A program made the translations under genes and the position numbers. This document shows positions 6,625 to 64,000 of a stretch of DNA of 64,000 bases, in pieces. Each line of letters opens with the position of its first letter. Position 1 is the first letter of the stretch. The stretch spans positions 1,651-65,650 of the forward strand of contig JBFMCF010000096.1 in the NCBI GenBank assembly GCA_040754625.1. The letters are read 5' to 3'. Below the pieces are notes generated by a model. It was not told the DNA's origin and did not search any database. It was given only the letters and a program-made list of their open reading frames with translations. Source of the stretch: a bacterium (GTDB lineage: Bacteria > JACRDZ01 > JAQUKH01).

Positions 6625-7896
6625 TTACAGTGACGTATATTTTTTCGCGTACATAAGTAAAATCATCAAATCGGCACCGGCCCTTATAACCCAGATGACC
6701 GCGGCTCCCGGCAATCCAAAATACTTTAAAAACATAAATAAAAGGGGAAAATAAAATACAAATTCTCCTAAATGTAAAATTGTGGTCATCTTGGCATTTC
6801 CTGCCGCTTGAACCGCGGCATAGGGGATTTGAGCTATGCCATTAAAAAATAATCCAACCGACAGAATAGAGGCAATTTTCCAGGAGTGTTGAGAAAAATC
6901 CCTTCCTAACCAAAGTGTTAAACCCCAATATGACCCGACAGCAATACTCAGGCATATCGCAAACATAGTAAGAGATGTTATTTTCAGGCTCTTTTTATAT
7001 ACGTTCTCAGCTCCCCTTTGATCCGCGCTCATCATAGAAGAAAGCCTTGGAAACAAAGCCGCTGCCAACGCACCGGGAATAATCAGAATACGAATTAAAA
7101 AATCAGAAGGCACAGTGTAATACGCGATTAAACCGGCACCTATCACGGATGAAATAATAAACCTGTCTGCCACCACCATTAAAGGGCTTACAATATTAGA
7201 CAAAGTCATCCAGGCACCAAATGAAAGCAGGTTGGATATCTCTTTCTCACTGCACTTTACCTTAATCCAGTTTATAGGCAACTTTTTATGCACTAAACAT
7301 ATATGCGCGCCTAATATCATAAACCTGGCTGCGATTAAACTGAACACTATCATATTAAGCGATGGTCCAAAAGCCATAACGCTTAAGACAGGTAACCCGA
7401 AATTAGCAAGCCCGAATAACAACCGCAGCAGATTAACTGTTTTAAAGTCTTCGAATGCTTCCAATACGCCTTTTAGCCCTGTTGTGAGAGTAACCATCGG
7501 GATACCAAATGCCACGATCAACAGGGAGTCAACTGTGTTTTGCTGCAGCGCCGCGCTGACATTCAGCCACTTAAAACCAAGCGGATTTGCCGCAACTGCT
7601 AATAAAACACCCCCAAAAGCCCCAGTAACTAACGTAAACAGCATCCCTGTCTTAACTAAACCAGATAATTTCTCAATTTGTTCTAACGCGCGATTAGCCG
7701 CGACTTGTTGAGTAAGCGCGCGGCCAAGCCCGAAATCAAAGAGGCTAAAATATCCAATTAAAGTCCATACAAGCGTAAGAATGCCGAATGCCTCTACTCC
7801 AATTTTATTTAACAAATACGGGATAGTGACAACACCCAGCAGGAATGGAATACCAGCCCCTGATATATTCCACAGCGTATTACGTTTCAATGACAT
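6625..7896 (-). CDS. wzx: Wzx-type polysaccharide flippase (MOP superfamily)
   Basis: 423 aa, about 12 TM. The N-terminus LWNISGAGIPFLLGVVTIPYLLNKIGVEAFGILTLVWTLIGYFSLFDFGLGRALTQ is the classic Wzx/PST start. Confidence 0.7.
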   Translation of the reverse strand: MSLKRNTLWNISGAGIPFLLGVVTIPYLLNKIGVEAFGILTLVWTLIGYFSLFDFGLGRALTQQVAANRALEQIEKLSGLVKTGMLFTLVTGAFGGVLLAVAANPLGFKWLNVSAALQQNTVDSLLIVAFGIPMVTLTTGLKGVLEAFEDFKTVNLLRLLFGLANFGLPVLSVMAFGPSLNMIVFSLIAARFMILGAHICLVHKKLPINWIKVKCSEKEISNLLSFGAWMTLSNIVSPLMVVADRFIISSVIGAGLIAYYTVPSDFLIRILIIPGALAAALFPRLSSMMSADQRGAENVYKKSLKITSLTMFAICLSIAVGSYWGLTLWLGRDFSQHSWKIASILSVGLFFNGIAQIPYAAVQAAGNAKMTTILHLGEFVFYFPLLFMFLKYFGLPGAAVIWVIRAGADLMILLMYAKKYTSL

Positions 7897-9402: not shown

Positions 9403-10182
9403 CTATCTACCCGGTTTTGTCTTTTCCCAATTTTCAGCCAAAAGAGCATAAGATATGCCGGCCATTAATGCCACAAAACACGAAAATACAATTATTGGTA
9501 CTTTTTTTGGAGAAACCGGATATTTTGATTTAACAGGGCCGTCAATTAATTTAAACTCTTTATTAACAACTAATTGTGTTTCCAATTGAAATTTTTGAAA
9601 TAACAAGTCTCTAATCTGCACCTTATCATCGGGATAAGCCAGGGGCGATACATTTTCCCTTTTAGCTAACGCGTTTTTATCCGCGCTAAGTTTGGTTTTT
9701 TCAATCAGGTTTTCAACTTGATAAATCTGATTTCTTATTAAATCAGTTTGTCTATTATAATTTGAATTCCCATATTCAATATAAACACTGACTATTTCCT
9801 TGCATAAAGAATATGCAATATCATTATCTTTTAACCTGACCTTTAACATAAATAAATTACTTTCTTTAATATTTTCTAATAAAATCATTTTTTTTATTTC
9901 ATGTTCTTGTGGAATTCTTAAGCCTATTTTTTCAAAAATCGGATTTAAAAAAAGTCCCGACCTTATTAGTGTTGACGCTTCCGGATAAGTTATAATCGGC
10001 ACATTTATATAACCATTTTGTATAGTTGCTTTTACCTCATAAGTTTTGGGAATAATAAATATTATAATACTCGCTAAAACCATTGCAACAAGAGCTGTAC
10101 TTAAAATAAAAGTTTTTCGTTTATTAATAATCTGAATAAAATCTATAAGGCCGATTTCTTCATTATATTTTGGATTTAACAT
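9403..10182 (-). CDS. Wzz-like chain-length determinant (polysaccharide co-polymerase, short form)
   Basis: 259 aa with an N-terminal TM (FILSTALVAMVLASIIIFIIP), a coiled-coil periplasmic segment and a C-terminal TM (VPIIVFSCFVALMAGISYALL). Confidence 0.5.
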   Translation of the reverse strand: MLNPKYNEEIGLIDFIQIINKRKTFILSTALVAMVLASIIIFIIPKTYEVKATIQNGYINVPIITYPEASTLIRSGLFLNPIFEKIGLRIPQEHEIKKMILLENIKESNLFMLKVRLKDNDIAYSLCKEIVSVYIEYGNSNYNRQTDLIRNQIYQVENLIEKTKLSADKNALAKRENVSPLAYPDDKVQIRDLLFQKFQLETQLVVNKEFKLIDGPVKSKYPVSPKKVPIIVFSCFVALMAGISYALLAENWEKTKPGR

Positions 10183-10259: not shown

Positions 10260-11324
10260 TTATTTACTTATATAATATTCGTAAGTCTTTTTGATTCCAT
10301 CCGACAAGCTAATTTCCGGTTTCCACCCTAAAGATTTAATTTTTGAACTATCAAGAAGTTTTCTTGGAATACCGTCAGGTTTTGAAAAATCAAATTTTAT
10401 TTCTCCGACAAAACCCACTATATCTTTTATCAACTTTGCTATATCTTTTATTTTTATTTCCTCACCGCTCCCGGTGTTAATAAATTCACCTATATTTTTA
10501 TATTCATAATTTTCCATCAAAAATAAACATGCATCAGCCATATCATCCACATATAAAAATTCCCTATAAGGTTCACCGCTGCCCCAAAGAGTAACATATT
10601 CCGGAGTTATACCCAGTTTTTCCAGGCTTAAATCATCAACGGCATCTGAATTCAGCCTGAAGTTAAACCCTATAGGATAAGTTTCTATGTCTTTTTTTAC
10701 CTCGTTATACTTTTTTTGGCTCAAAAGTTTTGCGAGATGAAACTTTCTTATCAAAGCCGCCGGGAGATGAGCTGTTTCTAAATTATAATTATCTCCCCGG
10801 CCATAAAGATTTGTAGGCATACCGGAAATAAAATTTGTCCCATATTGCTCATTGTAATATTGGCATAATTTTATCGCGGCTATTTTTGCTATCGCATACG
10901 GTTCATTAGTCGGTTCCAAAATCCCTATAAGGAGATGCTCTTCTTTCATCGGTTGAGGCGCGTTTCTTGGATAAATACAAGATGAACCAAGATTAAGAAG
11001 TTTTCCCACACCGTATTTATAAGCGGAATTTATAACATTGGCACCTATTATAATATTATCATATATAAACTCCGCTTTATATGTGCTGTTTGCAAGAATT
11101 CCGCCGACTTTTGCTGCTGCCAGGAACACATACTCGGGTTTTTCTTTTTCAAAAAAATCTTCAACTTCAGCCTGCTTTCTCAAATCAAGTTCTTTGCTTG
11201 TTTTGACAACTACATTTGTATATCCTGAGGCTTGAACTTTTCTTAGTAAAGCAGACCCTACTAATCCTTTATGTCCTGCGATATAAATTTTTGAACTTTT
11301 GTCCATCTGTTTACTTTTTCCCAT
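10260..11324 (-). CDS. fcl: GDP-L-fucose synthase (GDP-4-keto-6-deoxy-D-mannose 3,5-epimerase/4-reductase)
   Basis: KIYIAGHKGLVGSALLRKV...FLAAAKVGGI..N..YPA.F...N......N...A......KLL.LGSSCIYP: full Fcl/WcaG signature. Confidence 0.8.
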   Translation of the reverse strand: MGKSKQMDKSSKIYIAGHKGLVGSALLRKVQASGYTNVVVKTSKELDLRKQAEVEDFFEKEKPEYVFLAAAKVGGILANSTYKAEFIYDNIIIGANVINSAYKYGVGKLLNLGSSCIYPRNAPQPMKEEHLLIGILEPTNEPYAIAKIAAIKLCQYYNEQYGTNFISGMPTNLYGRGDNYNLETAHLPAALIRKFHLAKLLSQKKYNEVKKDIETYPIGFNFRLNSDAVDDLSLEKLGITPEYVTLWGSGEPYREFLYVDDMADACLFLMENYEYKNIGEFINTGSGEEIKIKDIAKLIKDIVGFVGEIKFDFSKPDGIPRKLLDSSKIKSLGWKPEISLSDGIKKTYEYYISK

Positions 11325-13145: not shown

Positions 13146-14585
13146 CTACCTTCCATATATATCATCAATTCTCTCGATATCATCTTCCCCTAAATATTCA
13201 CCGTTCTGGACCTCTATTATTTCTAAAGATGTTTCCCCTTGGTTTTCCAGCCGGTGAACGGCAGTTTTTGGAATATAGGCGGATTCGTTTTCACGGACAA
13301 TCAATTCTTTTTCTCCAATCGTAACTTTTGCAATTCCTTTTATAACCACCCAGTGTTCTGAACGATGTTTATGCCTCTGGAGGCTTAATTTAGCATTTTT
13401 ATTTACGATTATTCTCTTAATTTTATACCGGCCACCTTCCTCAAGCACAGTATAACTTCCCCAGGGCCTGTAAGTACAAGTATGTTCTACCGCTTCTTTG
13501 CGGTTATCTTTTTCTAATTTTCCAATAACATCCCTGACTTTCTGGGAACATCCCTTTTTTGCTATAAGCGTGGCATCAGCAGTATCAACCACAAGACAAT
13601 CTTCCAAACCTACCGTGGCTATTAATCTTTTGTCACCAATAATAAGACAATTTTTTGTGTCTGTAGTTAAAATATCACCTATCTTCGCGTTACCCGATTC
13701 ATCTTTTTCGAGTATTTCAAAAAAAGAATCCCATGACCCGATATCGTTCCAATATAAATCCATTGGAATGACCGCGACTTTGTCCGATTTTTCCATCACG
13801 GCGTAATCAATTGAAAGAGAAGGCATTCTACCAAATTCTTTCAGCATATCATCAAAATTTTTATCGAGAAATTCACCAATTTGAGGGGCATGTTTATTTA
13901 ATTCTTTAATAGCTGTCCCAATGGTAAAGGCAAACATTCCCGAGTTCCAGTAATAATCCCCGGAATCAACATATTTCTGCGCGGTCTCTCTATCCGGCTT
14001 CTCAACAAACTTTTCCACCTTTAAATAATTAATTTCTTCTGCTTTCTTCCTTCTGCCTTCTTCCTTCAGTCTTCTGACTTTAATATATCCATACCCCGTT
14101 TCAGGTTTCAAAGGTTTTATACCAAAAGTTGCCATATAGTTATCTTTAGCAACCTCTTCCGCATATTTCATATATTTTTTAAACATATCTTCATCTTCAT
14201 TTTTTATCATCTGGTCTGATGGCAAAACATAAATTAACTCATCCAGCCCGCAGCCAAGTTTTTCAATACAGTATTTCACACCTAATGCTATTGCAGGAGC
14301 GGTATTTTTACTCATAGGCTCAAGAATTATATGAGCAGGCGTATTCGCCTGCTCATCCTGAGTACAACGAAGGATCTCAGAAATATCGGATTTCACATGG
14401 AATTGATATTTATCGTTAGTTATAAAAATAATATCTTTTAATGATACCAAACCTGAAAGCCTTGCTATGGTCTGCTGCAAAAAAGATTTACCATTGTTTA
14501 TTTTTAAAAACTGTTTCGGGTAATTGCGCCTGCTCATCGGCCATAACCGCGTCCCTGAGCCGCCCGCCAAAATAAATGTTTTCAC
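13146..14585 (-). CDS. manC: Mannose-1-phosphate guanylyltransferase / mannose-6-phosphate isomerase (bifunctional, cupin C-terminus)
   Basis: LAGGSGTRLWPMSRRNYPKQFL at the N-terminus; C-terminal cupin HRLEN.GE....IEVQNGEYLGEDDIERIDDIYGR. Confidence 0.85.
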   Translation of the reverse strand: MKTFILAGGSGTRLWPMSRRNYPKQFLKINNGKSFLQQTIARLSGLVSLKDIIFITNDKYQFHVKSDISEILRCTQDEQANTPAHIILEPMSKNTAPAIALGVKYCIEKLGCGLDELIYVLPSDQMIKNEDEDMFKKYMKYAEEVAKDNYMATFGIKPLKPETGYGYIKVRRLKEEGRRKKAEEINYLKVEKFVEKPDRETAQKYVDSGDYYWNSGMFAFTIGTAIKELNKHAPQIGEFLDKNFDDMLKEFGRMPSLSIDYAVMEKSDKVAVIPMDLYWNDIGSWDSFFEILEKDESGNAKIGDILTTDTKNCLIIGDKRLIATVGLEDCLVVDTADATLIAKKGCSQKVRDVIGKLEKDNRKEAVEHTCTYRPWGSYTVLEEGGRYKIKRIIVNKNAKLSLQRHKHRSEHWVVIKGIAKVTIGEKELIVRENESAYIPKTAVHRLENQGETSLEIIEVQNGEYLGEDDIERIDDIYGR

Positions 14586-52521: not shown

Positions 52522-53631
52522 TTATTTATCAATAATTTTAGAAACAATTTTATACCACTTTTGATATTCAACAAAAAATTGCTTTATCATTTCTTTTTCA
52601 ACAGCACCACGTATTTTCATTTTTCCCAAATCTTGTTGGCAATTTTTAATTAATTCGCCAAGTGCTTCAAAATAAGTATTTTTTGTCAACTCAGCGTTCC
52701 GAAGCAATAAAACAAAGTCATCAGCCGCACGATTATTTATTAATTCTATGTCCAAATCATCCCATAAATCATGCATATTTCTTATTTGCCTTACTAAGGG
52801 TTGGCCAAAAGTTATAACATGACCAAAATGTCCGGCAAGTTTGTTAATTAAATATGCTGTCCATATATCTCCGTTCCTCAAAGTTGATAGTGGCCTATAA
52901 TATAAAGGTATTAATTCACGACATAAGGATGTGTTTTGATAATTAAACGGAGACCATGTTCCCGGGTAAAGACCAAACTGTTGATCAAAATCAGATTTCA
53001 TACCAGTGGCACGTATAGGCCAAAATAATCGTGAAATAGCATCTATATCGGGATCTTCGAGCACTAATCCCTGATTTGCAACCACTTTGACTTTTTTTGA
53101 ACTGTATGTTTTTTTACTTGCCTCAGGATTTCTTTGTTTCCATGGAAAACCTCTAGGATAAAAAGGAATATTATGTTCCTCTTCCAACGCACTATGGACA
53201 TTAAACCATCCCGAACTATTCTTAATCAACTTCAGATTGGCTTCTGTGCCGGTCACAGAATGAAATCCCACGAAATCATGTTCAGTTGTATAATTATCGT
53301 CATCAACTGCAATCAGCCTGTCACATCCTCTCATATAACTAAGCATACCGCCTAACATAATTCGATCGGGTGTATTGTATGGAAAAAGTTCCAGCAGGTC
53401 TTTATGTTTGAATAAAGCTTTTTTCTGACCTTCAATGCTTAAATATTCAATATCAAATTTGAATTTATCAGCTATTTTTTTGCAATATTCTTCAGTTTCA
53501 GCTGGTGTTTTAACATCGCCAATAACAAGAATTGAGACATCTAATCTATTATAATTTATTAAATTTTGACAAATTCCTTTTATAAATTCTGGAACATTTA
53601 TAGTAGTAATAGTTATCGCTGTCTTGCCCAT
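52522..53631 (-). CDS. GT75 / reversibly-glycosylated-polypeptide-like protein (UDP-L-arabinopyranose mutase family homolog)
   Basis: Blocks are collinear with the plant RGP proteins as I recall them: ITITTINVPEF vs LDIVIPTIRNLDF; LIAVDDDNY vs IFTIDDDCF; NQGLVLEDPDIDAISRL vs SHGLWLNIPDYDAPTQL; NGDIWTAYLINKLAGHFG vs YDDMWAGWCVKVICDHLG. A strong RBS (AAGGAG) precedes the start. Confidence 0.5.
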   Translation of the reverse strand: MGKTAITITTINVPEFIKGICQNLINYNRLDVSILVIGDVKTPAETEEYCKKIADKFKFDIEYLSIEGQKKALFKHKDLLELFPYNTPDRIMLGGMLSYMRGCDRLIAVDDDNYTTEHDFVGFHSVTGTEANLKLIKNSSGWFNVHSALEEEHNIPFYPRGFPWKQRNPEASKKTYSSKKVKVVANQGLVLEDPDIDAISRLFWPIRATGMKSDFDQQFGLYPGTWSPFNYQNTSLCRELIPLYYRPLSTLRNGDIWTAYLINKLAGHFGHVITFGQPLVRQIRNMHDLWDDLDIELINNRAADDFVLLLRNAELTKNTYFEALGELIKNCQQDLGKMKIRGAVEKEMIKQFFVEYQKWYKIVSKIIDK

Positions 53632-53919
53632 CTAAAAAATCTCCTTTTCAGTTTATTAATTATAAATTTATTTTACAATAACCAACTATGCAAATATTTT
53701 AATATTCTCCCCTCCTCCCATAATACATCTTCATAATTAACTTTCAACTGATTCGTTATAGCCAGTGCAATATAACAATTCTTTCATTCCTTGTCAACAG
53801 GAATTTTAAATGAAAGTATCCTCATTTTTAAAATAATGATTAGAATGGATAATATAATTTTTTTAATAAATCAGGAACCTTGTGAATATTTTATCGTTGA
53901 ATAATGATTAGCTTTTAAG

Positions 53920-55437
53920 TCAAGTTGGCAGTATACGCAGTTTCTGGATAACTCCCTTAATTTCACACCTGAAATTCATTGAAACCAAGTAAATAAGACA
54001 ACTATATAAAAAACAAAATACCGCCACCAGAGCGAAAAATCGAAACCAGTTTTCCGGGTAACACCATGAGAATCCCAAAGTTAAAGAAACCATAACGGCC
54101 AAAGCCAAAAAACCTTCATACATGATATTCTTACGATCTTGAACAGACAATTTAAGCAACCTGGAAAAAGTTCGGGAATAATACCAAGCTGAAACTGCAA
54201 GTATTGCGACTGATGGGGCAAGTACTGTGCCAAGCAAACCAAAATATTTAGTTCCAAAAATCACTAAAGGGATAAATACCAGTGACTGCACCAGACCTGC
54301 TAAACTGTTTCCTTTAATATTGCCAAGAGCCATACAAATGTTCCCAAAACAGTTTGCAGTAAAAGTAAAAATAAGTGACACACAAATTATCAGATTGATG
54401 GTTTTACCGGCAAACAGATACGGGCCAACCCAAAGCCTTACAAAATCATCGTTTAAGGCAATAAGGCCTCCAACAGTTAAACAAAGTATCCAAAGCAGCA
54501 TGTGTATTAAACGAATCAGGACTTTTCGCGCTTTGTCAATTTCACCCGAACCAGTCAAGTGAGAAATAGCAGGCATAAAAGCTACACTCGGCTGGTTGAC
54601 AAATTCCTTGCTATAATCAGGAGCTTTACGGGTCAGGGATAAAATTGTAACCGTCTCCGGACCCAGAAACCGGGAAACAACAAACAAATCCACGTTATTA
54701 GCAAGTATACCAGATACGCGTCCCAGAAATGTATACGATAAAAGTTTTGTTAAAGCAGAAATGTTATTAAACGAAAATTTAAATCCTATTTTTTCATCCG
54801 TCAATCTCCAAATAAGGTATGTGCCTTGTCCCAATGTATAGAATACTCCACCAAAGATCGAAGCAATAGCTATGGCAAGCAAGCCAAAACCTTTATAAAG
54901 CAAAACGGCAGTCAGAACAGTCATAAGTGCAGTGACAATAAAATTTGTAAGTCCAAATCCCAGACTGCTTTGAAAACCCTGGTTAATGGCAGAAATTGAA
55001 AAAGAGAAAACTGTTAGAGAAGTTCCAATCACCGCGATAGAAAATGCCTGTACTATTAACGATTTATCTATACCGGGAGGCAGGCTAAGAAACAACGGTA
55101 AATAGGGAGCAATGATAAAACCAATAGCAATTATGGAAATCGAAATAACGCCAGCAATAAACAACCCGCCTCCTAAAAGTTCGCGTATGGTTTGATAATC
55201 CCGTTTTCCATAAGCGGAACCTATTCGTTGCTGTAATACAACAGTCAGCCCAGGATCAAAAAACGAAAACCATATAAGAACATTCCCGCTGGCAAGCCAT
55301 GCTCCATAAACATCAGTTGGAATAAATTTGAGATAAAGAGGAACCATGATAACGCCCGAAACAATTGCCAATAGAATCGATCCGTATCGGATAAAAAGGT
55401 TCCATGTGGTAGTTTTTTTTCGGCTTCTAATATACAT
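53920..55437 (-). CDS. Second Wzx/polysaccharide-biosynthesis (MOP-family) flippase
   Basis: 505 aa, about 14 TM. N-terminus LFIRYGSILLAIVSGVIMVPLYLKFIPTDVYGAWLASGNVL is typical of PST/Wzx exporters. Confidence 0.6.
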   Translation of the reverse strand: MYIRSRKKTTTWNLFIRYGSILLAIVSGVIMVPLYLKFIPTDVYGAWLASGNVLIWFSFFDPGLTVVLQQRIGSAYGKRDYQTIRELLGGGLFIAGVISISIIAIGFIIAPYLPLFLSLPPGIDKSLIVQAFSIAVIGTSLTVFSFSISAINQGFQSSLGFGLTNFIVTALMTVLTAVLLYKGFGLLAIAIASIFGGVFYTLGQGTYLIWRLTDEKIGFKFSFNNISALTKLLSYTFLGRVSGILANNVDLFVVSRFLGPETVTILSLTRKAPDYSKEFVNQPSVAFMPAISHLTGSGEIDKARKVLIRLIHMLLWILCLTVGGLIALNDDFVRLWVGPYLFAGKTINLIICVSLIFTFTANCFGNICMALGNIKGNSLAGLVQSLVFIPLVIFGTKYFGLLGTVLAPSVAILAVSAWYYSRTFSRLLKLSVQDRKNIMYEGFLALAVMVSLTLGFSWCYPENWFRFFALVAVFCFLYSCLIYLVSMNFRCEIKGVIQKLRILPT

Positions 55438-55582
55438 ATAGTAATAATAAATGAGACGGCATTGTTATATTATTTTATTATTGATACTTACGAAATCCCC
55501 TGGTGCTTTTGTTTTTTTATAGTGCTTCGCCCTCTCAGTTACATTTCTGTAAACAGTAACCAACGATGGGCAATTTAAATTC

Positions 55583-56152
55583 TTAAATTTTTTCAACATC
55601 TGATGCATCTATTTTTAAAGACGCACCATGCATAAGCACGTCCACTGAAATTATTAGTATATGCTGTCCGGACCTTTTTGAAAGAACACCTTCGACTCCT
55701 GAAAGAGGGCCTTTTTTTATCCTCACTCTCTGTCCTTCTTTCAAATAAGGATACGGATCGAGGGGTTCCCGGCTTTCAACAATTCTTCTTAGAAAAATAA
55801 TTTGTTCCTCCGGTACAGGCTCCGGTTCACCATGTTTTATCCCAAGAAATTTCACTACACCCGTTGTCTTCAAAACATTTAACACATTTTGGGGATTTTT
55901 AAGCATATTAACAAAAAGATATCCCGGGAAGAGCGGAAACTTTACCAGTTTTTTTCTATCCTTCCATCTGTTTAGTTTCTCCACAACAGGGAGAAATGTG
56001 TTTATCCCGGTTTCTGTTAACCTCTCCAATACCTTAAACTCATGCCGGGACCTCACATGAATAACATACCAAAAAGCTTTATTAGAAAATTCGAATGGAG
56101 ATTTTCCACTAACAGAATAAAACTTTGAAACCACTCTATCCGATGGATTCAT
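55583..56152 (-). CDS. NusG-family transcription antiterminator paralog (RfaH/UpxY/LoaP-like); start trimmed to the internal Met
   Basis: NGN domain (WYVIHVRSRHEFKV...FPGYLFV) plus a C-terminal KOW (EGQRVRIKKGPLSGVEGVL). The ORF-track N-terminal 39 aa overlap kpsF and look non-coding. Confidence 0.6.
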   Translation of the reverse strand: MNPSDRVVSKFYSVSGKSPFEFSNKAFWYVIHVRSRHEFKVLERLTETGINTFLPVVEKLNRWKDRKKLVKFPLFPGYLFVNMLKNPQNVLNVLKTTGVVKFLGIKHGEPEPVPEEQIIFLRRIVESREPLDPYPYLKEGQRVRIKKGPLSGVEGVLSKRSGQHILIISVDVLMHGASLKIDASDVEKI

Positions 56153-56243
56153 AAAATTGGATAACTTTATTAGTTTTAAAAAATTTTCCGAAGATATATT
56201 AATTTCTTCGATTATAAATGTTAAGAGGTCAAGAATTTTTAAA

Positions 56244-57209
56244 TTATAAACCAATGCTGATAAGATCATGCATTCTGACCATACCTACAACAATTTTTTT
56301 CTTATTTATAACAGGCAAAATTGTTATTGGTTTTTCCCTTTTTTCCATCATTTCCAAAGCTGTAAAAGCTTTCTCATTTTCATAAATAAAAATTGGTTTT
56401 TTATTCATAATATCGTTGATTTTCAATTTAAAAATATCTTTCCCTTTTTCTAGAATTCTTCTTATGTCATAATCCGTTACAAGCCCAATTAATCTACTTT
56501 TTTTATCAATTACTGAAACGGCCCCTGCTTTTTTTTCTGTAATAACCATTAACATTTTGTGAATATTGTCGTATTCGTTAACAACCGGATTCTCCATACC
56601 GCATAACATAATATCCGAAACTAAAAGGTTAAGCCTTTTCCCCAAACGTCCGCCTGGATGAAAAAATGCGAATTCTTCAACCTTGAAATTTCTAAGCTTC
56701 ATTAGTACGACCGCAAATGCGTCCCCAATAACAATTGACACGGTAACGCTTGATGTAGGGGCAAGATTAAAAGGGCATGCTTCTTTAATATCTCCGATAT
56801 TTATTACAATGTCCGAAGTTCTTGCTAAAGGCGAGTTTTTATTGGAAGTTATTGATATAATTTTTACTTTGATTTTTTTAAGGAAAGGAAGCAGGGTGTT
56901 TAATTCGGAACTTTCACCGCTTTTCCCGATAGCAATCACGACATCAGACGAATTTACAATTCCAAGGTCCCCGTGCATAGCTTCCGAGGGATGCATAAAA
57001 ATAGCAGGTGTACCTGTGCTCGCCATTGTGGAAGCAATCTTTTTCGCGGCTATACCTGATTTCCCAATACCTGTTATTATTACCTTTCCCCTGCAATTTA
57101 AAATGGCATTAATCGCTTTTTCAAATTCCCTGCTTACTTCTTTTTTAATATCGGATAGCGCGTTTATTTCAATATCTATGACTTTTTTTATTTCGGCTTG
57201 AATATTCAC
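56244..57209 (-). CDS. kdsD: Arabinose-5-phosphate isomerase (KpsF/KdsD; SIS + tandem CBS)
   Basis: SIS domain GKVIITGIGKSGIAAKKIASTMASTGTPA plus two C-terminal CBS domains; 321 aa. Confidence 0.75.
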   Translation of the reverse strand: MNIQAEIKKVIDIEINALSDIKKEVSREFEKAINAILNCRGKVIITGIGKSGIAAKKIASTMASTGTPAIFMHPSEAMHGDLGIVNSSDVVIAIGKSGESSELNTLLPFLKKIKVKIISITSNKNSPLARTSDIVINIGDIKEACPFNLAPTSSVTVSIVIGDAFAVVLMKLRNFKVEEFAFFHPGGRLGKRLNLLVSDIMLCGMENPVVNEYDNIHKMLMVITEKKAGAVSVIDKKSRLIGLVTDYDIRRILEKGKDIFKLKINDIMNKKPIFIYENEKAFTALEMMEKREKPITILPVINKKKIVVGMVRMHDLISIGL

Positions 57210-57213
57210 AATT

Positions 57214-57738
57214 CTAAATTTTTTGTTTTATTTTGATGACAAAATCACAAAATTCTCTTACAGCGCCCTTCCCTCCGCGGGCTTTTGTAATATGCAGTGA
57301 TATTTTTTTAACTTCAGGATACGCGTCAGCCACACAAACAGGCAAACCAACAATCTGCAGACATTCGAGGTCATTTATATCATTTCCCACGTAAGCTGTT
57401 TTTTCCAAATCAATTCCTATTTTTTTCACTTCCCTTCTAAGAACTATGGCCTTGTGGTCTATTCCCTGTATACAAGGTATTCCTAGTTTTTTACAGCGGA
57501 CCGAAACAACGGGATTGACTTCCTTGGAAATGACAAGCATTTTAAGGCCGATATCTCTCAACATATTCAGCCCTAAACCGTCACTCCTGGAACATAAAAC
57601 ACCTTCTGAACCATCCTGCATAACTAAAACCCTGTTGTCAGTAAATACCCCATCAAAATCAAACACAATTAATTTTATCCCCGCAGCTATTTTCTCAATG
57701 TCTAACATGGATAGCGGTTTAAAATATTTTTTATTCAT
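57214..57738 (-). CDS. kdsC: HAD-IIIA phosphatase, Kdo-8-phosphate phosphatase type
   Basis: IVFDFDGVFTDNRV...NMLRDIGLKMLVISKEVNPVVSVRCKKLGI...YVGNDINDL...GLPVCVADA. Confidence 0.7.
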   Translation of the reverse strand: MNKKYFKPLSMLDIEKIAAGIKLIVFDFDGVFTDNRVLVMQDGSEGVLCSRSDGLGLNMLRDIGLKMLVISKEVNPVVSVRCKKLGIPCIQGIDHKAIVLRREVKKIGIDLEKTAYVGNDINDLECLQIVGLPVCVADAYPEVKKISLHITKARGGKGAVREFCDFVIKIKQKI

Positions 57739-58433
57739 TACTGTTTTTTTTCATTAAGATTTTTTAATCTATTTACTAAGTCATTCTTTTTAATATATTC
57801 AAAAATAAATACAAAAAAAACAGCAAAAACAAGACTGGATATTCCTGTTAAAATAGATTTCTTAATTAATCCTCTTGGCATTCTTGTTTCAGGTGGAACC
57901 GCGCGGTCAATCACCTGGACCAGGGAAATATTTGTGCTTAATTGAAGTTCCCTATTAAAATTATCTAATTTATCCAGATACGAGTTAGCAATTTTTGCAG
58001 ACAATTCCGGATCCTGAGTTATAACATCTAAGGTTATAACACTTCCTTTACCTAACGAAATTGTTGTTATACCTCTAAGCTTTATTCTTGTATCTTCTAA
58101 AAGAGTTTCATTCCATGTTGTTTTCAATTGCAACTCATTAATAATTTTATCCGCCATTTCCCTGCTTTTCAAAATTGAAATTATCAAATCTTCAAGAACC
58201 AATTTGGGTTTTAATACTTCTCCTGCCATATTTTCAGATTTATATTCCTTCACATTTAACGGGAAGAAAGTAACAGAAGCCTTATATTTAAACGGCTGTT
58301 TTAATATATTTATTGCGTTTAAACATACCGATATTAATACTATACCAATAACAATATTTCTATATTTATATATGACCTTAAAATATTCAAATAAATCTAT
58401 TTCCTCTTCTCTGCTGAATTCTTCAACCGGCAT
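57738..58433 (-). CDS. Wzz-like chain-length determinant / polysaccharide co-polymerase (second copy)
   Basis: 231 aa with an N-terminal TM (IVIGIVLISVCLNAI), a periplasmic coiled-coil and a C-terminal TM (ILTGISSLVFAVFFVFIF). Adjacent to wza. Confidence 0.5.
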   Translation of the reverse strand: MPVEEFSREEEIDLFEYFKVIYKYRNIVIGIVLISVCLNAINILKQPFKYKASVTFFPLNVKEYKSENMAGEVLKPKLVLEDLIISILKSREMADKIINELQLKTTWNETLLEDTRIKLRGITTISLGKGSVITLDVITQDPELSAKIANSYLDKLDNFNRELQLSTNISLVQVIDRAVPPETRMPRGLIKKSILTGISSLVFAVFFVFIFEYIKKNDLVNRLKNLNEKKQ

Positions 58434-58534
58434 AAAAATCCTTTTTATAATTTATAATAATCAATTATCTCAATTAAATAATTATCTATGTCAGTCAATC
58501 TATTTTTTAAAATATCTTTTTTAAAAGAATATTT

Positions 58535-58975
58535 TTATCTGCCATTTAAAGCTTCTTTCCTAATCGCTACAATCATGCCTTTCTGCATTTTTTTAAGTAA
58601 AAATTGATAATCCAGATATTGGACTATTGTTTTGCTTTTGAACAAAGATAATTTATCCCTGTCCCGTTCAAAAACCACTCTCCCGTTTTTAATTATCTGA
58701 TAAGACAAAATTTCCCCTGTCTCCTGGAAAATCACCAAATCTATTTCTTTATTCAACAATTTCGCAATATCATTCTTGAACTTAAGTCTGGACATAAAAC
58801 TCTCTTGTTTGTTTTTGTACGGTTCAGTAAGGACAGCTATATCAACATCACTCTCTGGCCTCTGTTTATCTTCAGCGTAAGATACAAAAAGATAAAGAGC
58901 AATTATCTCTTCATTACCCTGGCCGTATTCTTTTAAGATTTTTTCCATATCATTAATCATATTGTTATCTTTCAA
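58535..58975 (-). CDS. Minimal nucleotidyltransferase (MNT / Pol-beta superfamily, antitoxin-like)
   Basis: LFVSYAEDKQRPESDVDIAVL: G.S...D.D NTase motif. 146 aa; no HepT/HEPN partner seen. Confidence 0.5.
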   Translation of the reverse strand: MKDNNMINDMEKILKEYGQGNEEIIALYLFVSYAEDKQRPESDVDIAVLTEPYKNKQESFMSRLKFKNDIAKLLNKEIDLVIFQETGEILSYQIIKNGRVVFERDRDKLSLFKSKTIVQYLDYQFLLKKMQKGMIVAIRKEALNGR

Positions 58976-58978
58976 ATT

Positions 58979-60589
58979 TTATTTTTTGTTTTCTAAATCT
59001 TCTTCCTTTTCCGGGACAATGATAATGTCCCCGCGGGAAATAATTTCATCACCTTTTAATTTCGTGAGGACCTTTCCGCTTGCTTTAACAATATAAATCC
59101 CATTTACGTGCGCCCTTTCCGTAAGCCCCCCAACTATATCCAGGTAATAATTTATATTATTGCCTTCTTTGAAAATCACGGTCTCAGGGTTATAAACCGC
59201 CCCGCTTATCATTACCCATTCAGGGACAGGCGGTATATATAAACTATCGCCTTTTTCAAGGATTATATCATCTTCTCCATTGCTTATTTTAGAAAAATCA
59301 ATAATTATCCTGCCCCTGGGGGATTGGGCCGCGAATAATTGCAATGCCTTTTTTCTTTTATCTATTCCTGCCTGCCGGATTTCTCTTTCTTCCTTTAATA
59401 TCAGGGCTTCCGCCAAGCTTGCTTCTTCTTCCTGGATACCTATCTCTCTTGCCCTGATTTCCTTGTTAATTATTTCTTTTTGCTTTTCTATTAACACCTG
59501 CCTTGTCAAAATAATCCCTTCAGGGTAAGCCCATTCCGTCACCCCCTCGAACCGTTTAATTAAACTGCTGAGTTTCTCGCCGTCTTTAATTATATAGCTT
59601 CCCGGGTTAACCGCCTCACCTGTAACAGTGACAGTTTTCATCATATCTTTCCCGAAAGGAGTAAAATTATATTCCGGTGTAATAAGAATTGTGTCCATAT
59701 ACTCAATCCTTATATCATCTTTCGTGTTTATTATTTTTTCGAAATCGTCTGTTATAATTTCTTTCACGGCAATAATATTTTTAGTTTCATTATTAAAACG
59801 CATAACCTGTATTTTTTTATTAGATTTACCGGGAATAACGCCTGATGCTGTATTTATTACTGCCGACAGATTCGAATCTTTATTTATTTCATATATTCCG
59901 GGCCGGACAACATCCCCCCGGACTGCGGCTAAATTTTCTATAAGAGGGACAAAAATCTTGTCACCGTGCTGAAGCGTAATATTTTTTGAATCATCGCCTT
60001 TTAAAACAAACTGGTAAAAATCAAAAATACCTATAACCTTATTTCCCCTTACCAATCTTATATTTTTTAAGCTCCCGTTTTCAGCAGGCCCGCCGGTAAT
60101 TATCAATCCATCTAAAATTCTGGCAAAAGGGCTTATGGAGAACATCCCGGGCTTTCGGACACTTCCCAAAACTGAAATACGTATATCCTGGACATTCCCC
60201 AAACTTAAATCGAACTGGACATTTACATATTTCTGGTTTAACGCATTTTTTATCTTTTCCTTTACCTCTTCAAGGACACTACCTACCACATAAACCGACC
60301 CGATGCGGGGAATAAGAATTTTTCCGTCATTATCGATTACAAGTGTGTATTTTTCTTCTATCTTTCCCCAGAGATTAATCACCAGTGTATCCCCGACACC
60401 TAATTTAAAATCCGGCTCCAGACGGTAAATTTCGCCTTTAAAAGGCGTAGAAAAAGCCTTGGCAAATTCTGCGTTCCCTACGCGCTCTAAATCTCTGTTA
60501 AACTGGTAAAAAAGATCATCGGCAAGAGATGTTTTAACAAAAAATACCGTTAAAATAATTAATATGATGTTTTTAAGTAATCCGCGCAT
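58979..60589 (-). CDS. wza: Polysaccharide export outer-membrane protein (Wza-like; Poly_export + SLBB domains)
   Basis: Signal peptide, then a Poly_export motif region (YRLEPDFKLGVGDTLVINLWG) and repeated SLBB-like beta-grasp segments; 536 aa. Confidence 0.75.
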   Translation of the reverse strand: MRGLLKNIILIILTVFFVKTSLADDLFYQFNRDLERVGNAEFAKAFSTPFKGEIYRLEPDFKLGVGDTLVINLWGKIEEKYTLVIDNDGKILIPRIGSVYVVGSVLEEVKEKIKNALNQKYVNVQFDLSLGNVQDIRISVLGSVRKPGMFSISPFARILDGLIITGGPAENGSLKNIRLVRGNKVIGIFDFYQFVLKGDDSKNITLQHGDKIFVPLIENLAAVRGDVVRPGIYEINKDSNLSAVINTASGVIPGKSNKKIQVMRFNNETKNIIAVKEIITDDFEKIINTKDDIRIEYMDTILITPEYNFTPFGKDMMKTVTVTGEAVNPGSYIIKDGEKLSSLIKRFEGVTEWAYPEGIILTRQVLIEKQKEIINKEIRAREIGIQEEEASLAEALILKEEREIRQAGIDKRKKALQLFAAQSPRGRIIIDFSKISNGEDDIILEKGDSLYIPPVPEWVMISGAVYNPETVIFKEGNNINYYLDIVGGLTERAHVNGIYIVKASGKVLTKLKGDEIISRGDIIIVPEKEEDLENKK

Positions 60590-60672
60590 ATTTTCTCCAG
60601 TAAAATGAAATTGATATTATCATATAAAATAAAATTGTGTCAACTGATAAAACTATTTTTTATTATTTATTA

Positions 60673-61560
60673 TTATTCTTTATCCGGCAAATTGTTAATT
60701 TCGTCTTTATGGGCAAGAATAAATGATTCGAATTCAGTGCTGTCCATTAGATTAGACAGGCTTTTTATTATATCAGCCTGGATACTTTTATCCTGTTTTA
60801 AAAGGTCAACCATAGGTTCTATCGCGCGTTTGTCTTTTATTTTGCCCAGGGATTCCAGTATTGCCAAACGGACACCGCCCTCCTCAATCTTGAGGGCTTC
60901 AACCAGCGGACCTACCGCGCGGGTATCTTTGATATTGCCAAGTGCAATTACTACGCCGCATTGAAGGAACATATCATCCCGGAAATTCAGAAACCCTAAA
61001 AGGGTTTCGACTGCACGCTGGTCACCTATCCTGCCCAAAACTTCGGCCGCTTTTAATTTAACACCGGTATCCTCTTCATTTTTAAGTGTGTTAATAAGCG
61101 GTTCAACCGCGGGCCCGCCCATTTTGGCAAGTACATTCATTACTTCGTTATGCAGCGAACTGAAAGTATTTTTAAGTTCCGAAATAAGTAAATCCACTGA
61201 TGTGTCGCCCATACAACTCAAGGTTTTTACGGCCCCTTCACGTAAATTTTCGCTGTCGTCTCCAAGCGCCTCAATAAGGATTATTACCGCAGGTTTACCT
61301 ATCTTACATAACGCTTCTGATACCTCTTCACGAATATTTTCATTGCTGTCCTGGAATGTTTCAATAAGGCTTTTCACAGCGCGTCCGTCTCTTAATTCGC
61401 CTAAATCCATTACGGCCTTTTTGCGGATATTACTGTCGCGATTTTTAAGTAAATCAATAGTTTCCTGCATTTTTTCCGGGGTTGTCTGTGATTGAGAATC
61501 CCCCAGACCGAACAAAAACCCGAAAAATAAAGTTAGAATGAATATTTTCTTTGACTTCAC
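60673..61560 (-). CDS. Secreted HEAT/PBS-lyase-repeat protein
   Basis: Signal peptide MKSKKIFILTLFFGFLFGLG followed by about 8 HEAT-like repeats (D...R..A...LG.....AV..L...L.D). Confidence 0.5.
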   Translation of the reverse strand: MKSKKIFILTLFFGFLFGLGDSQSQTTPEKMQETIDLLKNRDSNIRKKAVMDLGELRDGRAVKSLIETFQDSNENIREEVSEALCKIGKPAVIILIEALGDDSENLREGAVKTLSCMGDTSVDLLISELKNTFSSLHNEVMNVLAKMGGPAVEPLINTLKNEEDTGVKLKAAEVLGRIGDQRAVETLLGFLNFRDDMFLQCGVVIALGNIKDTRAVGPLVEALKIEEGGVRLAILESLGKIKDKRAIEPMVDLLKQDKSIQADIIKSLSNLMDSTEFESFILAHKDEINNLPDKE

Positions 61561-61637
61561 GATCTTTTCCTTAGAGCTCTTGATACAGTTTTAACACTAT
61601 ATGATACCAGATTTTTGAAAATTTGTGAAAATTTTTT

Positions 61638-63284
61638 TCAGGTTTCTTTGAAGATACTCAAAAGATGCGGGGCCAACTGTTTTTTGCGGGACAAAACGCC
61701 TTTTAATTCGGCAATATGCGGTTCCAGTAAAGGGTAACCCAAACGGCGGCAGAGATTAACATCTCCGTCAAAAACCAATAAGCTGTTCGATACCGAAATA
61801 TCCGTTACGAGAAGGGCGGAAAAATTATATTTGCGGCTGCGCCTTATTTTTACAAGTTCTTCAGTAAGCCGGTGTTTAATTTTGTCAAATTCGCTAAAAC
61901 CGACTAATTCTATCTGGCCCACTCCAAAAGTAATTTTCCCTGTTTTATACTCCTTAAAATCAGAAAGTATAATTTCCTCGGGGCTGCGGCCCGCAATATT
62001 CACCCCTGATGCCAATAGTTTCGCGCTATAGATTTCTAAATCCAGTTTCGCGGTATTATTGAGCCTTTCCATCATCTCTTTATCCAATGCGGTTGTCGTA
62101 GGAGATTTTAAATTAACAGTATCCGATATTATTCCCGAAATCAAAAGCCCTGCAGTTTTCGGATCTATTTCGATATTTTTTTCAAAATAAAGCCTGGATA
62201 TTAAAGTGCATGTGCTTCCCACCGGCTGGTTAATGAACAATATAGGATGCAGGGTTTCACGGTTGGCGAGCCTATGATGGTCTATAATCTCCATAATCTC
62301 GCACTGGTCTGCCCCGTCCACTGATTGCGAAATTTCATTATGGTCTATTAAAATGAGCTTTGGTTTGGAGAATTTCAAAAAATCAGCCATGGTAATTATC
62401 CCGGTAATTTTATGCTCCTCGTTAAGCACCGCCATGCCCCTGTTATAAGCCTTCAGGATTTTTAGCTGTGCCTCTTCCAATAACTCATCCGCGGTAAATG
62501 TGCCGTCGTAATTTTGCGCCACACGGTAAGCCGGTGTACTCAGCCTGACAAATCCAAGTGTTGTAGCGGTATCATATGGTGAAACTAGGAGGTTTACATT
62601 ATGCTCAACCGCCATACGGCGTATTTCTTCGGAAATGGACAGCCCGCCTGTAACCACGAGTGCCCTTACCCCGTTTTCAATAGCAATCTCCTGGATTTCC
62701 TCCCTATCCCCGGTTATCACAATACATTTTTTATGGTCAAGCCCGGACAAAACCTTGCCAAAAGAAAGTTCCTGCATCGCGCCCACAAGAAAAATTCCCT
62801 GGAAAACGTCATCAGAATGGTAAGCGTTCAGCAATTTTCCTCCGAGAGCGGCATGTATATACTTGACTGATGTAAAAATTTCACGTGAGTTTAACGGTGT
62901 CACCTCGCGAAAAAGCCCGTGGGCGATATCAAATAAGCTTACTATCCCGCAGTAACAATCCCTTTCATCAACCAACGGTATTAAACGGATATTATTTTTT
63001 TCCATCACAGCCAGTAATTCTTTTAATGATGCGTTCTTATTGCAAAAAATCACCTCTTTACTCATCGCATGTCCCACGTTGGGCGTGATGTCCGGAAGGA
63101 ATAAAGGCGCGGGAACACCAAAATATGATAATACAAATTCCGTTTGCAGGTTAAGGTTCCCCGCCCTCGCGGGAACCACATTATTTTCCCCCTGGGATTG
63201 TTTGAGTTTCGCGTATGCAATTGCCGCGCATATTGAATCTGTATCGGGGTTTTTATGGCCGATTATGAATATATTACTAATCAT
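61638..63284 (-). CDS. CBS-domain-containing family-II (DHH/DHHA2) inorganic pyrophosphatase-like phosphoesterase
   Basis: N-terminal DHH motif (IIGHKNPDTDSICAAIAYA), internal CBS pair and DRTGG-like region, C-terminal DHHA2 (LIDHNE...GADQCEIMEIIDHH). 548 aa. Confidence 0.65.
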   Translation of the reverse strand: MISNIFIIGHKNPDTDSICAAIAYAKLKQSQGENNVVPARAGNLNLQTEFVLSYFGVPAPLFLPDITPNVGHAMSKEVIFCNKNASLKELLAVMEKNNIRLIPLVDERDCYCGIVSLFDIAHGLFREVTPLNSREIFTSVKYIHAALGGKLLNAYHSDDVFQGIFLVGAMQELSFGKVLSGLDHKKCIVITGDREEIQEIAIENGVRALVVTGGLSISEEIRRMAVEHNVNLLVSPYDTATTLGFVRLSTPAYRVAQNYDGTFTADELLEEAQLKILKAYNRGMAVLNEEHKITGIITMADFLKFSKPKLILIDHNEISQSVDGADQCEIMEIIDHHRLANRETLHPILFINQPVGSTCTLISRLYFEKNIEIDPKTAGLLISGIISDTVNLKSPTTTALDKEMMERLNNTAKLDLEIYSAKLLASGVNIAGRSPEEIILSDFKEYKTGKITFGVGQIELVGFSEFDKIKHRLTEELVKIRRSRKYNFSALLVTDISVSNSLLVFDGDVNLCRRLGYPLLEPHIAELKGVLSRKKQLAPHLLSIFKET

Positions 63285-63599
63285 AACTATCTCTTTTTAT
63301 TTGTCTTTCTCTTTTGGGGTGGCCTTTTCTATTAATTTGTTCATGTCTTTCTCCCAGGAACTCCCTTTTTGTTCTTCGTTACCTTTTCTCGGCCGGCTGC
63401 AGCCTAAAAAACCAATAATAAGAAAAAGGCTTAACATATATGATAATAATCTCCTGAAACCGGATTTTTTCATTTTTGCTCCTTTTATTTATCCCGATAG
63501 AAGCCTTTAACTCCCTCTATTTTCCAAAGCGGGAAATAACTTTTAACGGAATTTATTACTTATAATACTACCAGATTGGATTTTTTGGCAATAGATATT

Positions 63600-63995
63600 T
63601 TAATCCGCTTTTTTTATGTTTGAAATAAAATGCACCACCCCGCCGGCCAAACTAAACATCATACCCACGCTGAAATATAAAAGAGAAATAAAAATGGCCT
63701 CTTCGGAGGGAACATTGACTTTGTTAAACAAATATACAAATATACCTTCACGGACCCCTATTCCGCTCAAAGATATGGGGATTACTGTCGCGAGAAACAC
63801 AATCGGCACAAAAATAAAAAAGTAAAAAACGCTTAAATCAAGACCTGCCGCCCTCGCGACAAAATAACAGCTTATTATTGATAAAATCTGCATCAACAAC
63901 GAATAGAATAATACCTTGAGAAGGACCTTCCGGTGTGTGATAAAAAAATGCATTGCCTCATAAAAAATTATAATATACTGTTTTATTTTATCCAA
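63600..63995 (-). CDS. Membrane protein, flippase-like / LPG-synthase-TM (UPF0104) domain, C-terminal part; the N-terminus probably continues beyond the window edge
   Basis: FVPIVFLATVIPISLSGIGVREGIFVYLF is characteristic of the UPF0104 flippase-like domain. The ORF reaches the window end. Confidence 0.3.
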   Translation of the reverse strand: MDKIKQYIIIFYEAMHFFITHRKVLLKVLFYSLLMQILSIISCYFVARAAGLDLSVFYFFIFVPIVFLATVIPISLSGIGVREGIFVYLFNKVNVPSEEAIFISLLYFSVGMMFSLAGGVVHFISNIKKAD

Positions 63996-64000
63996 TGCCT

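Follow-up and report, generated by a model that had tools for sequence, protein, structure and literature searches.

What does a NusG paralog do in the middle of a polysaccharide locus, and where would it join RNA polymerase? The question is raised by a 64,000-nucleotide (nt) stretch of bacterial DNA, called here the window (GenBank assembly GCA_040754625.1, contig JBFMCF010000096.1, positions 1,651 to 65,650), in which the gene for such a paralog lies on the minus strand within a long polysaccharide array. Specialised NusG paralogs drive long surface-polysaccharide, toxin and antibiotic operons. To our knowledge, a loading site has been worked out for RfaH and, since 2024, for the UpxY proteins of Bacteroides, with a proposed one for LoaP, and for no others. 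An earlier note on this DNA expected an ops-like recruitment element in a 5' leader somewhere upstream of the gene. An ops-like element does exist, but it is not upstream of the paralog: it lies directly after the gene, at 55502-55578 on the minus strand, and consists of a long hairpin followed by a GCG-N-AGC core. Our preferred reading, to which we give a probability of about 0.68, is that the encoded UpxY-family antiterminator would load at this element and serve the array downstream of it.

Is the protein a specialised NusG at all, or is it the housekeeping copy? The minus-strand open reading frame (ORF) at 55583-56269 would encode 228 residues, of which 67-157 form a NusG NGN domain (Pfam PF02357, E 4.6e-22, 78.8 bits against a cut-off of 22.2). 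The NCBIfam model of the UpxY family transcription antiterminators (NF033644) matches end to end, over model positions 1-162 of 164, with 127.9 bits against a cut-off of 100. The models for RfaH (TIGR01955, 85.8 against 144.5; NF006534, 58.4 against 124), LoaP (NF033641, 73.7 against 125) and housekeeping NusG (TIGR00922, 46.6 against 135.7) all stay below theirs, leaving UpxY as the only one of the four families compared whose cut-off is passed. The housekeeping context secE-nusG-rplK-rplA is absent, the neighbours being kdsD and wzx; paralogs of related loci are about 26% identical to Escherichia coli NusG; and no second NusG homologue that could be the housekeeping nusG was seen in the window or in the related loci that were fetched. 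Judged by these profiles and neighbours, the protein is a genuine specialised NusG of the UpxY family and not the housekeeping NusG, which bears out the claim of the earlier note. Membership of the UpxY family is in itself ordinary and already annotated: NCBI has the identical 228-residue protein, encoded on a contig of 93,484 nt, under the name 'MAG: UpxY family transcription antiterminator [bacterium]'. Its homologues (829 at E ≤ 1e-3) come overwhelmingly from metagenome-assembled genomes of the Nitrospirota/Thermodesulfovibrionales type, and that of Dissulfurispira thermophila is 70% identical.

What of the C-terminal half? Pfam reports no KOW domain at E ≤ 1, but the domain is supported otherwise: the UpxY, RfaH and NusG models of NCBIfam reach the C-terminus of the paralog (residues 67-223 of 228), and a family profile spans the NGN and the KOW domain of NusG and RfaH chains of solved structure with similar, modest scores of about 45-47 bits, including the GxxVxIxxGPxxGxxG stretch. 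No solved structure closer to the family than these chains was found with that profile. On whether the C-terminal domain is α-helical as in RfaH, an AlphaFold2 (AF2) model gives β strands, but it is too weak for use. All paralogs linked to the element share a [KR]-[SP]-R-H-E motif (with few variants) that aligns with K10-Q13 of RfaH, in an RfaH sequence verified against PDB 2OUG.

Where could such a protein be recruited? A pattern scan of GTDB species representatives for the paralog gave 80 loci, and the presence of k-mers was counted over the 400 nt downstream of the paralog stop. Upstream of the paralog genes, the enriched k-mers were coding-sequence words only. Downstream, a 13-mer stood out, GAGAGGGCG(G/A)AGC plus flanks, with AGGGCGGAGC in 32 and GAGAGGGCGGAG in 25 of the 80 loci. 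The window copy of this motif, AUGUAACUGAGAGGGCGAAGCACU, lies 44 nt past the paralog stop and belongs to a larger element that begins 5 nt past that stop: a long hairpin (55527-55573, the proposed nascent-RNA pause hairpin) whose arms, UUGCCCAUCGUUGGUUAC on the 5' side and GUAACUGAGAGGGCGA on the 3' side, pair around a small apical hairpin, and then GAGAGGGCGAAGCACU. The ops-like core, GGCGAAGCACUA, occupies 55520-55531, with GCG-A-AGC at 55524-55530 and U55521 as the proposed pause. In the aligned copies, a first box, (G)CCUUCUUGGUUA, is followed in the 3' direction by an apical hairpin that varies between copies and by a second box, UAACYGAGAGGGC, whose complementarity to the first involves several G-U pairs; then come the invariant tail GGAGCAGUG and an A-rich sequence. 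The family consensus of the core is GGCGGAGCAGUG. The most conserved part of the element is the 13-nt 3' sequence, not the stem. The loop base of the core is G (GCG-G-AGC-A) except in the window and the three relatives nearest to it, which have A (GCG-A-AGC-A). Covariation of this base with helix 1 of NGN, at the positions where RfaH contacts ops, was uninformative, the A loop being confined to a single clade (window, L203, L205); the candidate residue, E at RfaH position 23, is also found in G-loop lineages.

Is the hairpin real? Applied to the raw MAFFT alignment, RNAalifold gave only a weak hairpin of five pairs and not the long stem. We defined the stem by hand and compared its pair counts with those of slid and shuffled controls. 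About 76.6% of its cells are paired, against 40-49% when the partners are slid by 1-3 columns; its covariation score is 0.21, against 0.06-0.12 in the slid controls; and none of 500 column shuffles reached the observed pairing or covariation. The outcome was the same on a model-based alignment of 54 copies. The apical pairs show true compensatory variety (GC 8, UA 8 and CG 5 at one pair, for example), and the basal pairs are conserved with frequent G-U, which on the opposite strand would be A-C mismatches; because of these many G-U pairs the structure is specific to the sense strand. Folding energies of four canonical copies lie between -28 and -31 kcal/mol, with z between -6.3 and -7.1. A covariance model of the element (R1) finds a single copy in the window, 55502-55578 on the minus strand, with 49.6 bits and E 9.6e-15, the runner-up reaching 12.6 bits and E 0.14. 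On 81 related loci (1.1 Mb) it gives 51 matches at E<1e-3, every one on the strand of the paralog. The only intergenic sense-strand GYGNAGC of the window is the one at 55530. The element exists as a conserved, paired and strand-specific feature with a defined gene context.

These properties bear directly on two other explanations. Could the conserved sequence be a double-stranded DNA operator, for instance for a protein of 193 residues with HTH_24 and C2185-like_N domains, that controls an internal promoter of the biosynthetic genes? The invariant 13-mer could be a protein-binding site, and the gene of this helix-turn-helix (HTH) protein adjoins the paralog in 34 of 78 related loci. The element is kept, however, in the window and in the relatives closest to it, and the window encodes no homologue of the HTH protein; all significant matches lie on one strand, where the stem relies on G-U pairs; the invariant part is without dyad symmetry; and no promoter-like match is found between the paralog and the element or in the 3' part of the paralog gene. 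The distance between the stem arms, which ranges from about 7 to 45 nt among copies, misfits promoter geometry, and for the same reason a reading of the two conserved boxes as -35 and -10 promoter elements is excluded. An operator is hardly credible in view of all this. A better, if still quite improbable, alternative is a structured RNA of another kind, either a processing or stabilising hairpin that would uncouple the messenger RNA of the conserved genes from that of the variable ones through an RNase, or a riboregulator that responds to a ligand or a protein; the proximity of the paralog would then reflect mere shared residence at the junctions of polysaccharide loci. The strong sense-strand hairpin with its covariation and G-U pairs would suit such an RNA, as would the position of the element, in every case intergenic and ahead of polysaccharide genes, and the lack of a paralog in reach of many copies. 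What speaks for a loading site instead is that conservation peaks in the 13-nt 3' sequence, which matches both the GCG-N-AGC signature of ops and opsX and the pause consensus, and that, in two phyla, the position of the element is closely tied to that of paralog genes. Rfam, JUMPstart included, gives no relevant match at E ≤ 10 in 53000-64000 of the window or in a canonical copy (10400-10750 of the related locus L024).

How far does the element reach? A metagenome scan by the 17-mer RACYGAGAGGGCGGAGC found at least 120 loci, and R1 matched 61 times at E<0.01 in the 100 of them on which it was run. Among the matches listed, from 120 metagenome loci, a NusG paralog is nearby in 35; it starts just past the element in 22, the order known from Bacteroides, and ends just before it in eight, the order of the window. 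Over both layouts and both phyla, the element lies either 40-120 nt past the paralog stop or 11-117 nt (mostly 50-90) before the paralog start. Paralogs of the loci in which the element comes first are just 36-50% identical to that of the window, and the named sources of the homologues of one of them are mostly Acidobacteriota (Candidatus Sulfotelmatobacter, Acidoferrales), labelled UpxY family. The first ORF past 99 R1-positive elements is most often a NusG paralog (17), followed by an epimerase/dehydratase (14), Polysacc_synt_2 (10) and UDP-glucose dehydrogenase (8), with PGM/PMM (4), NTP_transferase (3), Poly_export (3) and ABC-2 (3) further down. Extra copies also occur deep within loci that carry the paralog (L005, L008, L024 at +6.7 kb, and L027), which indicates more than one target per genome.

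The nearest relatives tell what the element separates. Three of them, L203, L205 and L206, were found through exact-protein lookup; their paralogs are 76% (L203) and 82% (L205 and L206) identical to that of the window. All three have the order Poly_export, Wzz, HAD, SIS+CBS and paralog at 62-78% protein identity, and R1 places the element after the paralog in L203-L206. Past the element, L203, L205 and L206 carry entirely different sugar genes, for example NeuB/CTP_transf_3 nonulosonate genes and radical-SAM enzymes. Since these relatives keep wza-wzz-kdsC-kdsD-paralog-element and then switch sugar genes, the paralog closes a conserved export module and marks the junction between an export and precursor module and a variable biosynthetic region. 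Within the GTDB scan set, a KdsD-type gene upstream of the paralog is unique to the window. The upstream neighbour is otherwise the HTH protein (34 of about 78 loci), a conserved protein of 262-285 residues together with a long gap (12 loci), or miscellaneous. The polysaccharide cluster of D. thermophila opens with the paralog, which is preceded by the gene for the 193-residue HTH_24/C2185-like_N protein; the element lies at 9908-9996 of this locus (L001). Proteins of this type (192-209 residues; 9316-9897 in L001, also in L005, L009 and L029) are encoded co-directionally and often with almost no gap to the paralog, and may be a partner regulator of the paralog family.

Where does the paralog gene start, and does it belong to the transcription unit of the module that precedes it? 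The public 228-residue ORF overlaps kdsD by 26 nt with its first 39 codons. Most homologues have about 172 residues, and the two closest full-length ones have 189 and start at the residue aligned with M40. Because the homologues start there and because L205, 82% identical, has four in-frame stop codons upstream of the methionine equivalent to M40, the true start is probably the ATG at 56152, which would place the coding sequence at 55583-56152 (minus strand, 189 residues) and the annotated start 39 codons too early. A spacer of 91 nt (56153-56243) then separates the paralog from kdsD, and in it R1, folding and a promoter scan detected no conserved element.

Could this spacer hold a promoter of its own, with the paralog in a separate transcription unit and wza-kdsD as another operon? 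Spacers of 91-112 nt occur in the window and in L205 and L206, that of the window being partly alignable to that of L205 and absent in L203; it contains a small hairpin followed by a T-run, and a weak σ70-like match, TTAACA-17-TAATAT at 56224-56196. That match scores 9 of 12, a quality at which the scan found 47 matches where 41 were expected by chance, and the fold of the spacer is not significant (z -0.54). In L203 the ATG of the paralog follows the kdsD stop by only 10 nt, which favours co-transcription of the paralog with wza-wzz-kdsC-kdsD. A separate promoter is therefore unlikely, and it would in any case concern the promoter only and be compatible with an ops-like mechanism further downstream. 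The second transcription unit starting near 56.2 kb that had been suggested is thus neither needed nor indicated. Nor did the leaders that had been singled out as places for the recruitment element (63285-63599, 56153-56243 and 53632-53919) yield an R1 match or a GYGNAGC. An autoregulatory arrangement, also put forward in the earlier note, does not fit the layout, in which the paralog lies upstream of its presumed loading site.

How does this compare with what is known? Bacteroides UpxY proteins load at opsX during a NusA-enhanced pause (Saba et al. 2024, PMC11685472). At these sites a nascent-RNA hairpin extends to -12 to -9, and the non-template DNA forms a second hairpin, 5'-YGCGNAGCR, whose GCG..AGC stems are those of ops. 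The system of UpxY and opsX leaders is also the subject of Chatzidaki-Livanis et al. (2009/2010), as cited in the review PMC7819879, where cis-loading is proposed for embedded NusG paralogs. The window resembles this system in several ways: the paralog reaches the UpxY cut-off, it sits in a polysaccharide locus beside its presumed target, and the element combines an RNA hairpin, whose 3' arm ends at about -9 where that of opsX ends about 9-12 nt before the U-G pause, with GCG-N-AGC-R. Set against the published consensus, however, the first position is G rather than the Y of YGCGNAGCR. The phylum is another one as well, the homologues of the window paralog being found in Nitrospirota/Thermodesulfovibrionia-type genomes. 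In Bacteroides a leader opsX is followed by upxY as the first gene of the capsule operon, whereas in the window the paralog comes first, at the end of a conserved wza-wzz-kdsC-kdsD export module, and the element after it. Bacteroides also has locus-specific opsX variants, in contrast to one nearly invariant core across lineages here. There is no room for upxZ in the 145-nt gap between paralog and flippase, and no UpxZ match in the flippase or among the 25 commonest Pfam families of the 48 downstream ORFs.

E. coli RfaH, likewise a specialised NusG paralog for long polysaccharide and lipopolysaccharide operons, offers a second comparison. The 12-nt consensus of the core, GGCGGAGCAGTG, is identical to ops, GGCGGTAGCGTG, at 8 of 12 positions in an ungapped alignment, and the element consensus also has the bases of the elemental pause consensus at -10/-11 (G), -1 (U) and +1 (G), the window copy having A at +1. 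Element sites without an adjacent paralog gene suggest targets in trans, as in the RfaH regulon. Unlike ops, the element has a core loop of one nucleotide instead of two, a large upstream RNA hairpin and no match to JUMPstart. Unlike rfaH, a stand-alone gene, the window paralog is embedded, and its low-confidence AF2 model is without sign of an α-helical, autoinhibited C-terminal domain. Bacillus LoaP is similar in being encoded beside its target operon and in requiring a leader hairpin as part of its cis element, but its targets are polyketide operons in Firmicutes, its model stays below cut-off for the window paralog, and we know of no GCG-N-AGC core described for it. The organisation as such has a parallel in the E. 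coli group 2 capsule (kps) loci, where an export and Kdo module flanks a serotype-variable region whose readthrough is aided by a NusG paralog and ops. As in kps, a KpsF-type isomerase, a Wza/KpsD-like exporter and a Wzz/KpsE-like protein are encoded beside the variable region; unlike in kps, the junction is occupied by the gene of the antiterminator, and the flippase and Wzy content suggests a Wzx/Wzy-type rather than an ABC-transporter pathway.

How might the system work? Polymerase, having most likely started at a promoter ahead of the conserved module, would transcribe that module with the paralog and then enter the element. The long nascent-RNA hairpin would form first, and the sequence GGCG(G/A)AGCAGU-G, which fits the elemental pause consensus with its break between U and G, would follow. 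The exposed non-template DNA could then form a small GCG-N-AGC hairpin like those read by RfaH and the Bacteroides UpxY proteins. A pause stabilised by the hairpin would give the NGN domain of the paralog time to bind and to displace NusG on the polymerase, and the modified enzyme would resist termination and polarity over the variable genes, from wzx onward and for up to about 50 kb. As the paralog lies upstream of the presumed site, its synthesis should not depend on its own action, and the layout reads as feed-forward rather than autoregulation. A gene followed by a pause would also suit cis loading.

Several observations weigh against this proposal. The window's own hairpin is weaker than the canonical ones, with a minimum free energy of -17.4 kcal/mol, z -2.7 and 4 of 200 shuffles as good; the L205 copy is also weak (-12.2, z -2.4). 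The window core GGCGAAGCACUA matches E. coli ops at just 5 of 12 positions and has A for G at +1. Some 64 of the 120 metagenome loci among the matches listed are without a paralog in reach, and some of these may be chance 17-mer matches, others trans targets. In 32 related loci (about 40%) R1 finds no match in the fetched flanks. The AF2 model of the paralog (β strands 142-168, mean predicted local distance difference test score 67, low confidence) says little about the C-terminal domain. Sites resembling intrinsic terminators occur across the array at chance frequency and within ORFs, and the need for antitermination, perhaps against Rho-dependent polarity, is for this reason an assumption. 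Finally, pausing, binding of the paralog at the element, antitermination and the transcript boundaries are what we infer from evidence that is all comparative.

The related loci in which R1 found nothing (for example L030, L040, L047, L057, L062 and L078) have more distant paralogs, at 62% identity or less, and often the conserved upstream gene for a protein of 262-285 residues with a gap of 300-690 nt. About ten of them carry another downstream word, GTCCTTTTTACATCA. They may form a subfamily of their own, and the word may stand for a terminator or for a different cis element. In L070 (268-3730), several copies of GGCAGCGGAGGGTGGAGCGGTTGCGG about 156 nt apart lie upstream of the paralog locus; they have the look of a repeat array, probably a coding one, and are unrelated to the element.

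What lies on either side of the junction? All gene-like ORFs of at least 120 residues are on the minus strand over the whole 64 kb, and the map of ORFs and the Pfam counts agree with the very long co-directional polysaccharide array that had been described. So does the position of the paralog, which by Pfam and NCBIfam follows wza-wzz-kdsC-kdsD and sits between the genes of a KpsF/KdsD-type isomerase and a Wzx-like flippase. The conserved upstream module (56244-60589, minus strand, as are all features below) comprises a Wza-type exporter with Poly_export and SLBB domains (58979-60589), a Polbeta-type nucleotidyltransferase (58535-58975), Wzz (57738-58433), a KdsC/YrbI-like HAD phosphatase (57214-57738; 103.4 bits, just under the cut-off of 106.95) and a KpsF/GutQ/KdsD-type isomerase with SIS and two CBS domains (56244-57209; TIGR00393, 289 bits against 203.7). 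The 83-nt gap before wza holds TTGACA-16-GATAAT (11 of 12) at 60643-60616, a candidate promoter of the module from wza to the paralog. The Polbeta/MNT-type nucleotidyltransferase between wza and wzz is followed by a gap of 101 nt and has no HEPN partner; since wza and wzz are adjacent in L203 and L205, with no such gene between them, it looks like an orphan toxin-antitoxin remnant inserted in the module. D. thermophila has a pair of nucleotidyltransferase and HepT-like genes just past its paralog.

Downstream of the element, the array presumed to be under its control (4549-55437) begins with the Wzx-like flippase of the Polysacc_synt_3/MurJ/MatE type (53920-55437) and continues with about 48 further ORFs rich in polysaccharide functions. 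Pfam counts there include eight Epimerase/GDP_Man_Dehyd, five Glycos_transf_1 (GT1), two Wzy_C and one Bac_transf initiating transferase, and ManC, asparagine-synthase-like and radical-SAM enzymes are encoded as well. A second Wzz (9403-10182), a second flippase (6625-7896) and a second Wzy_C lie near the distal end, and this duplicated set suggests more than one polysaccharide unit, such as two in tandem. The 288-nt gap between the first flippase and the next gene (53632-53919) contains TTGACA-17-TATATT with an extended TG at 53797-53769, the best σ70-like match in that part of the window and a possible internal promoter; R1 and Rfam gave no match in this gap. A perfect 11-bp GC-rich hairpin, ATGAGCAGGCGAATACGCCTGCTCAT, lies at 14331-14356 inside the ManC-like gene (13146-14585), and the last large ORF (849-2159) encodes transposase-like HTH_28/29/32 domains.

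What, then, is new? Searching the literature for the core sequence, or for polysaccharide leader motifs together with NusG in these phyla, brought up nothing relevant. Relative to the literature searched and to Rfam, the novelty lies in the hairpin element, in its spread over at least two phyla outside Bacteroidota and in the reversed order, paralog and then site, at a junction of conserved and variable genes. We would go further only tentatively and at somewhat less than even odds: the hairpin plus GAGAGGGCGGAGCAGU may be an undescribed class of loading site that crosses phyla, nearly unchanged with UpxY-family paralogs of Nitrospirota/Thermodesulfovibrionia and Acidobacteriota, and that marks polysaccharide operons whether or not they are linked to a paralog, while the pause in the window could permit a freshly made paralog to load in cis on its own polymerase. 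The element is a concrete candidate for the loading site of the UpxY-family proteins of environmental Nitrospirota and Acidobacteriota, a large and uncharacterised group, and the logic of GCG-N-AGC plus a pause hairpin appears to reach beyond Bacteroidota. The order of gene and site appears to be reversible, which would shift the regulatory logic from positive feedback to feed-forward control or cis loading. In the polysaccharide loci of uncultured bacteria, R1 can serve to locate the starts of operons and the regulons of paralogs.

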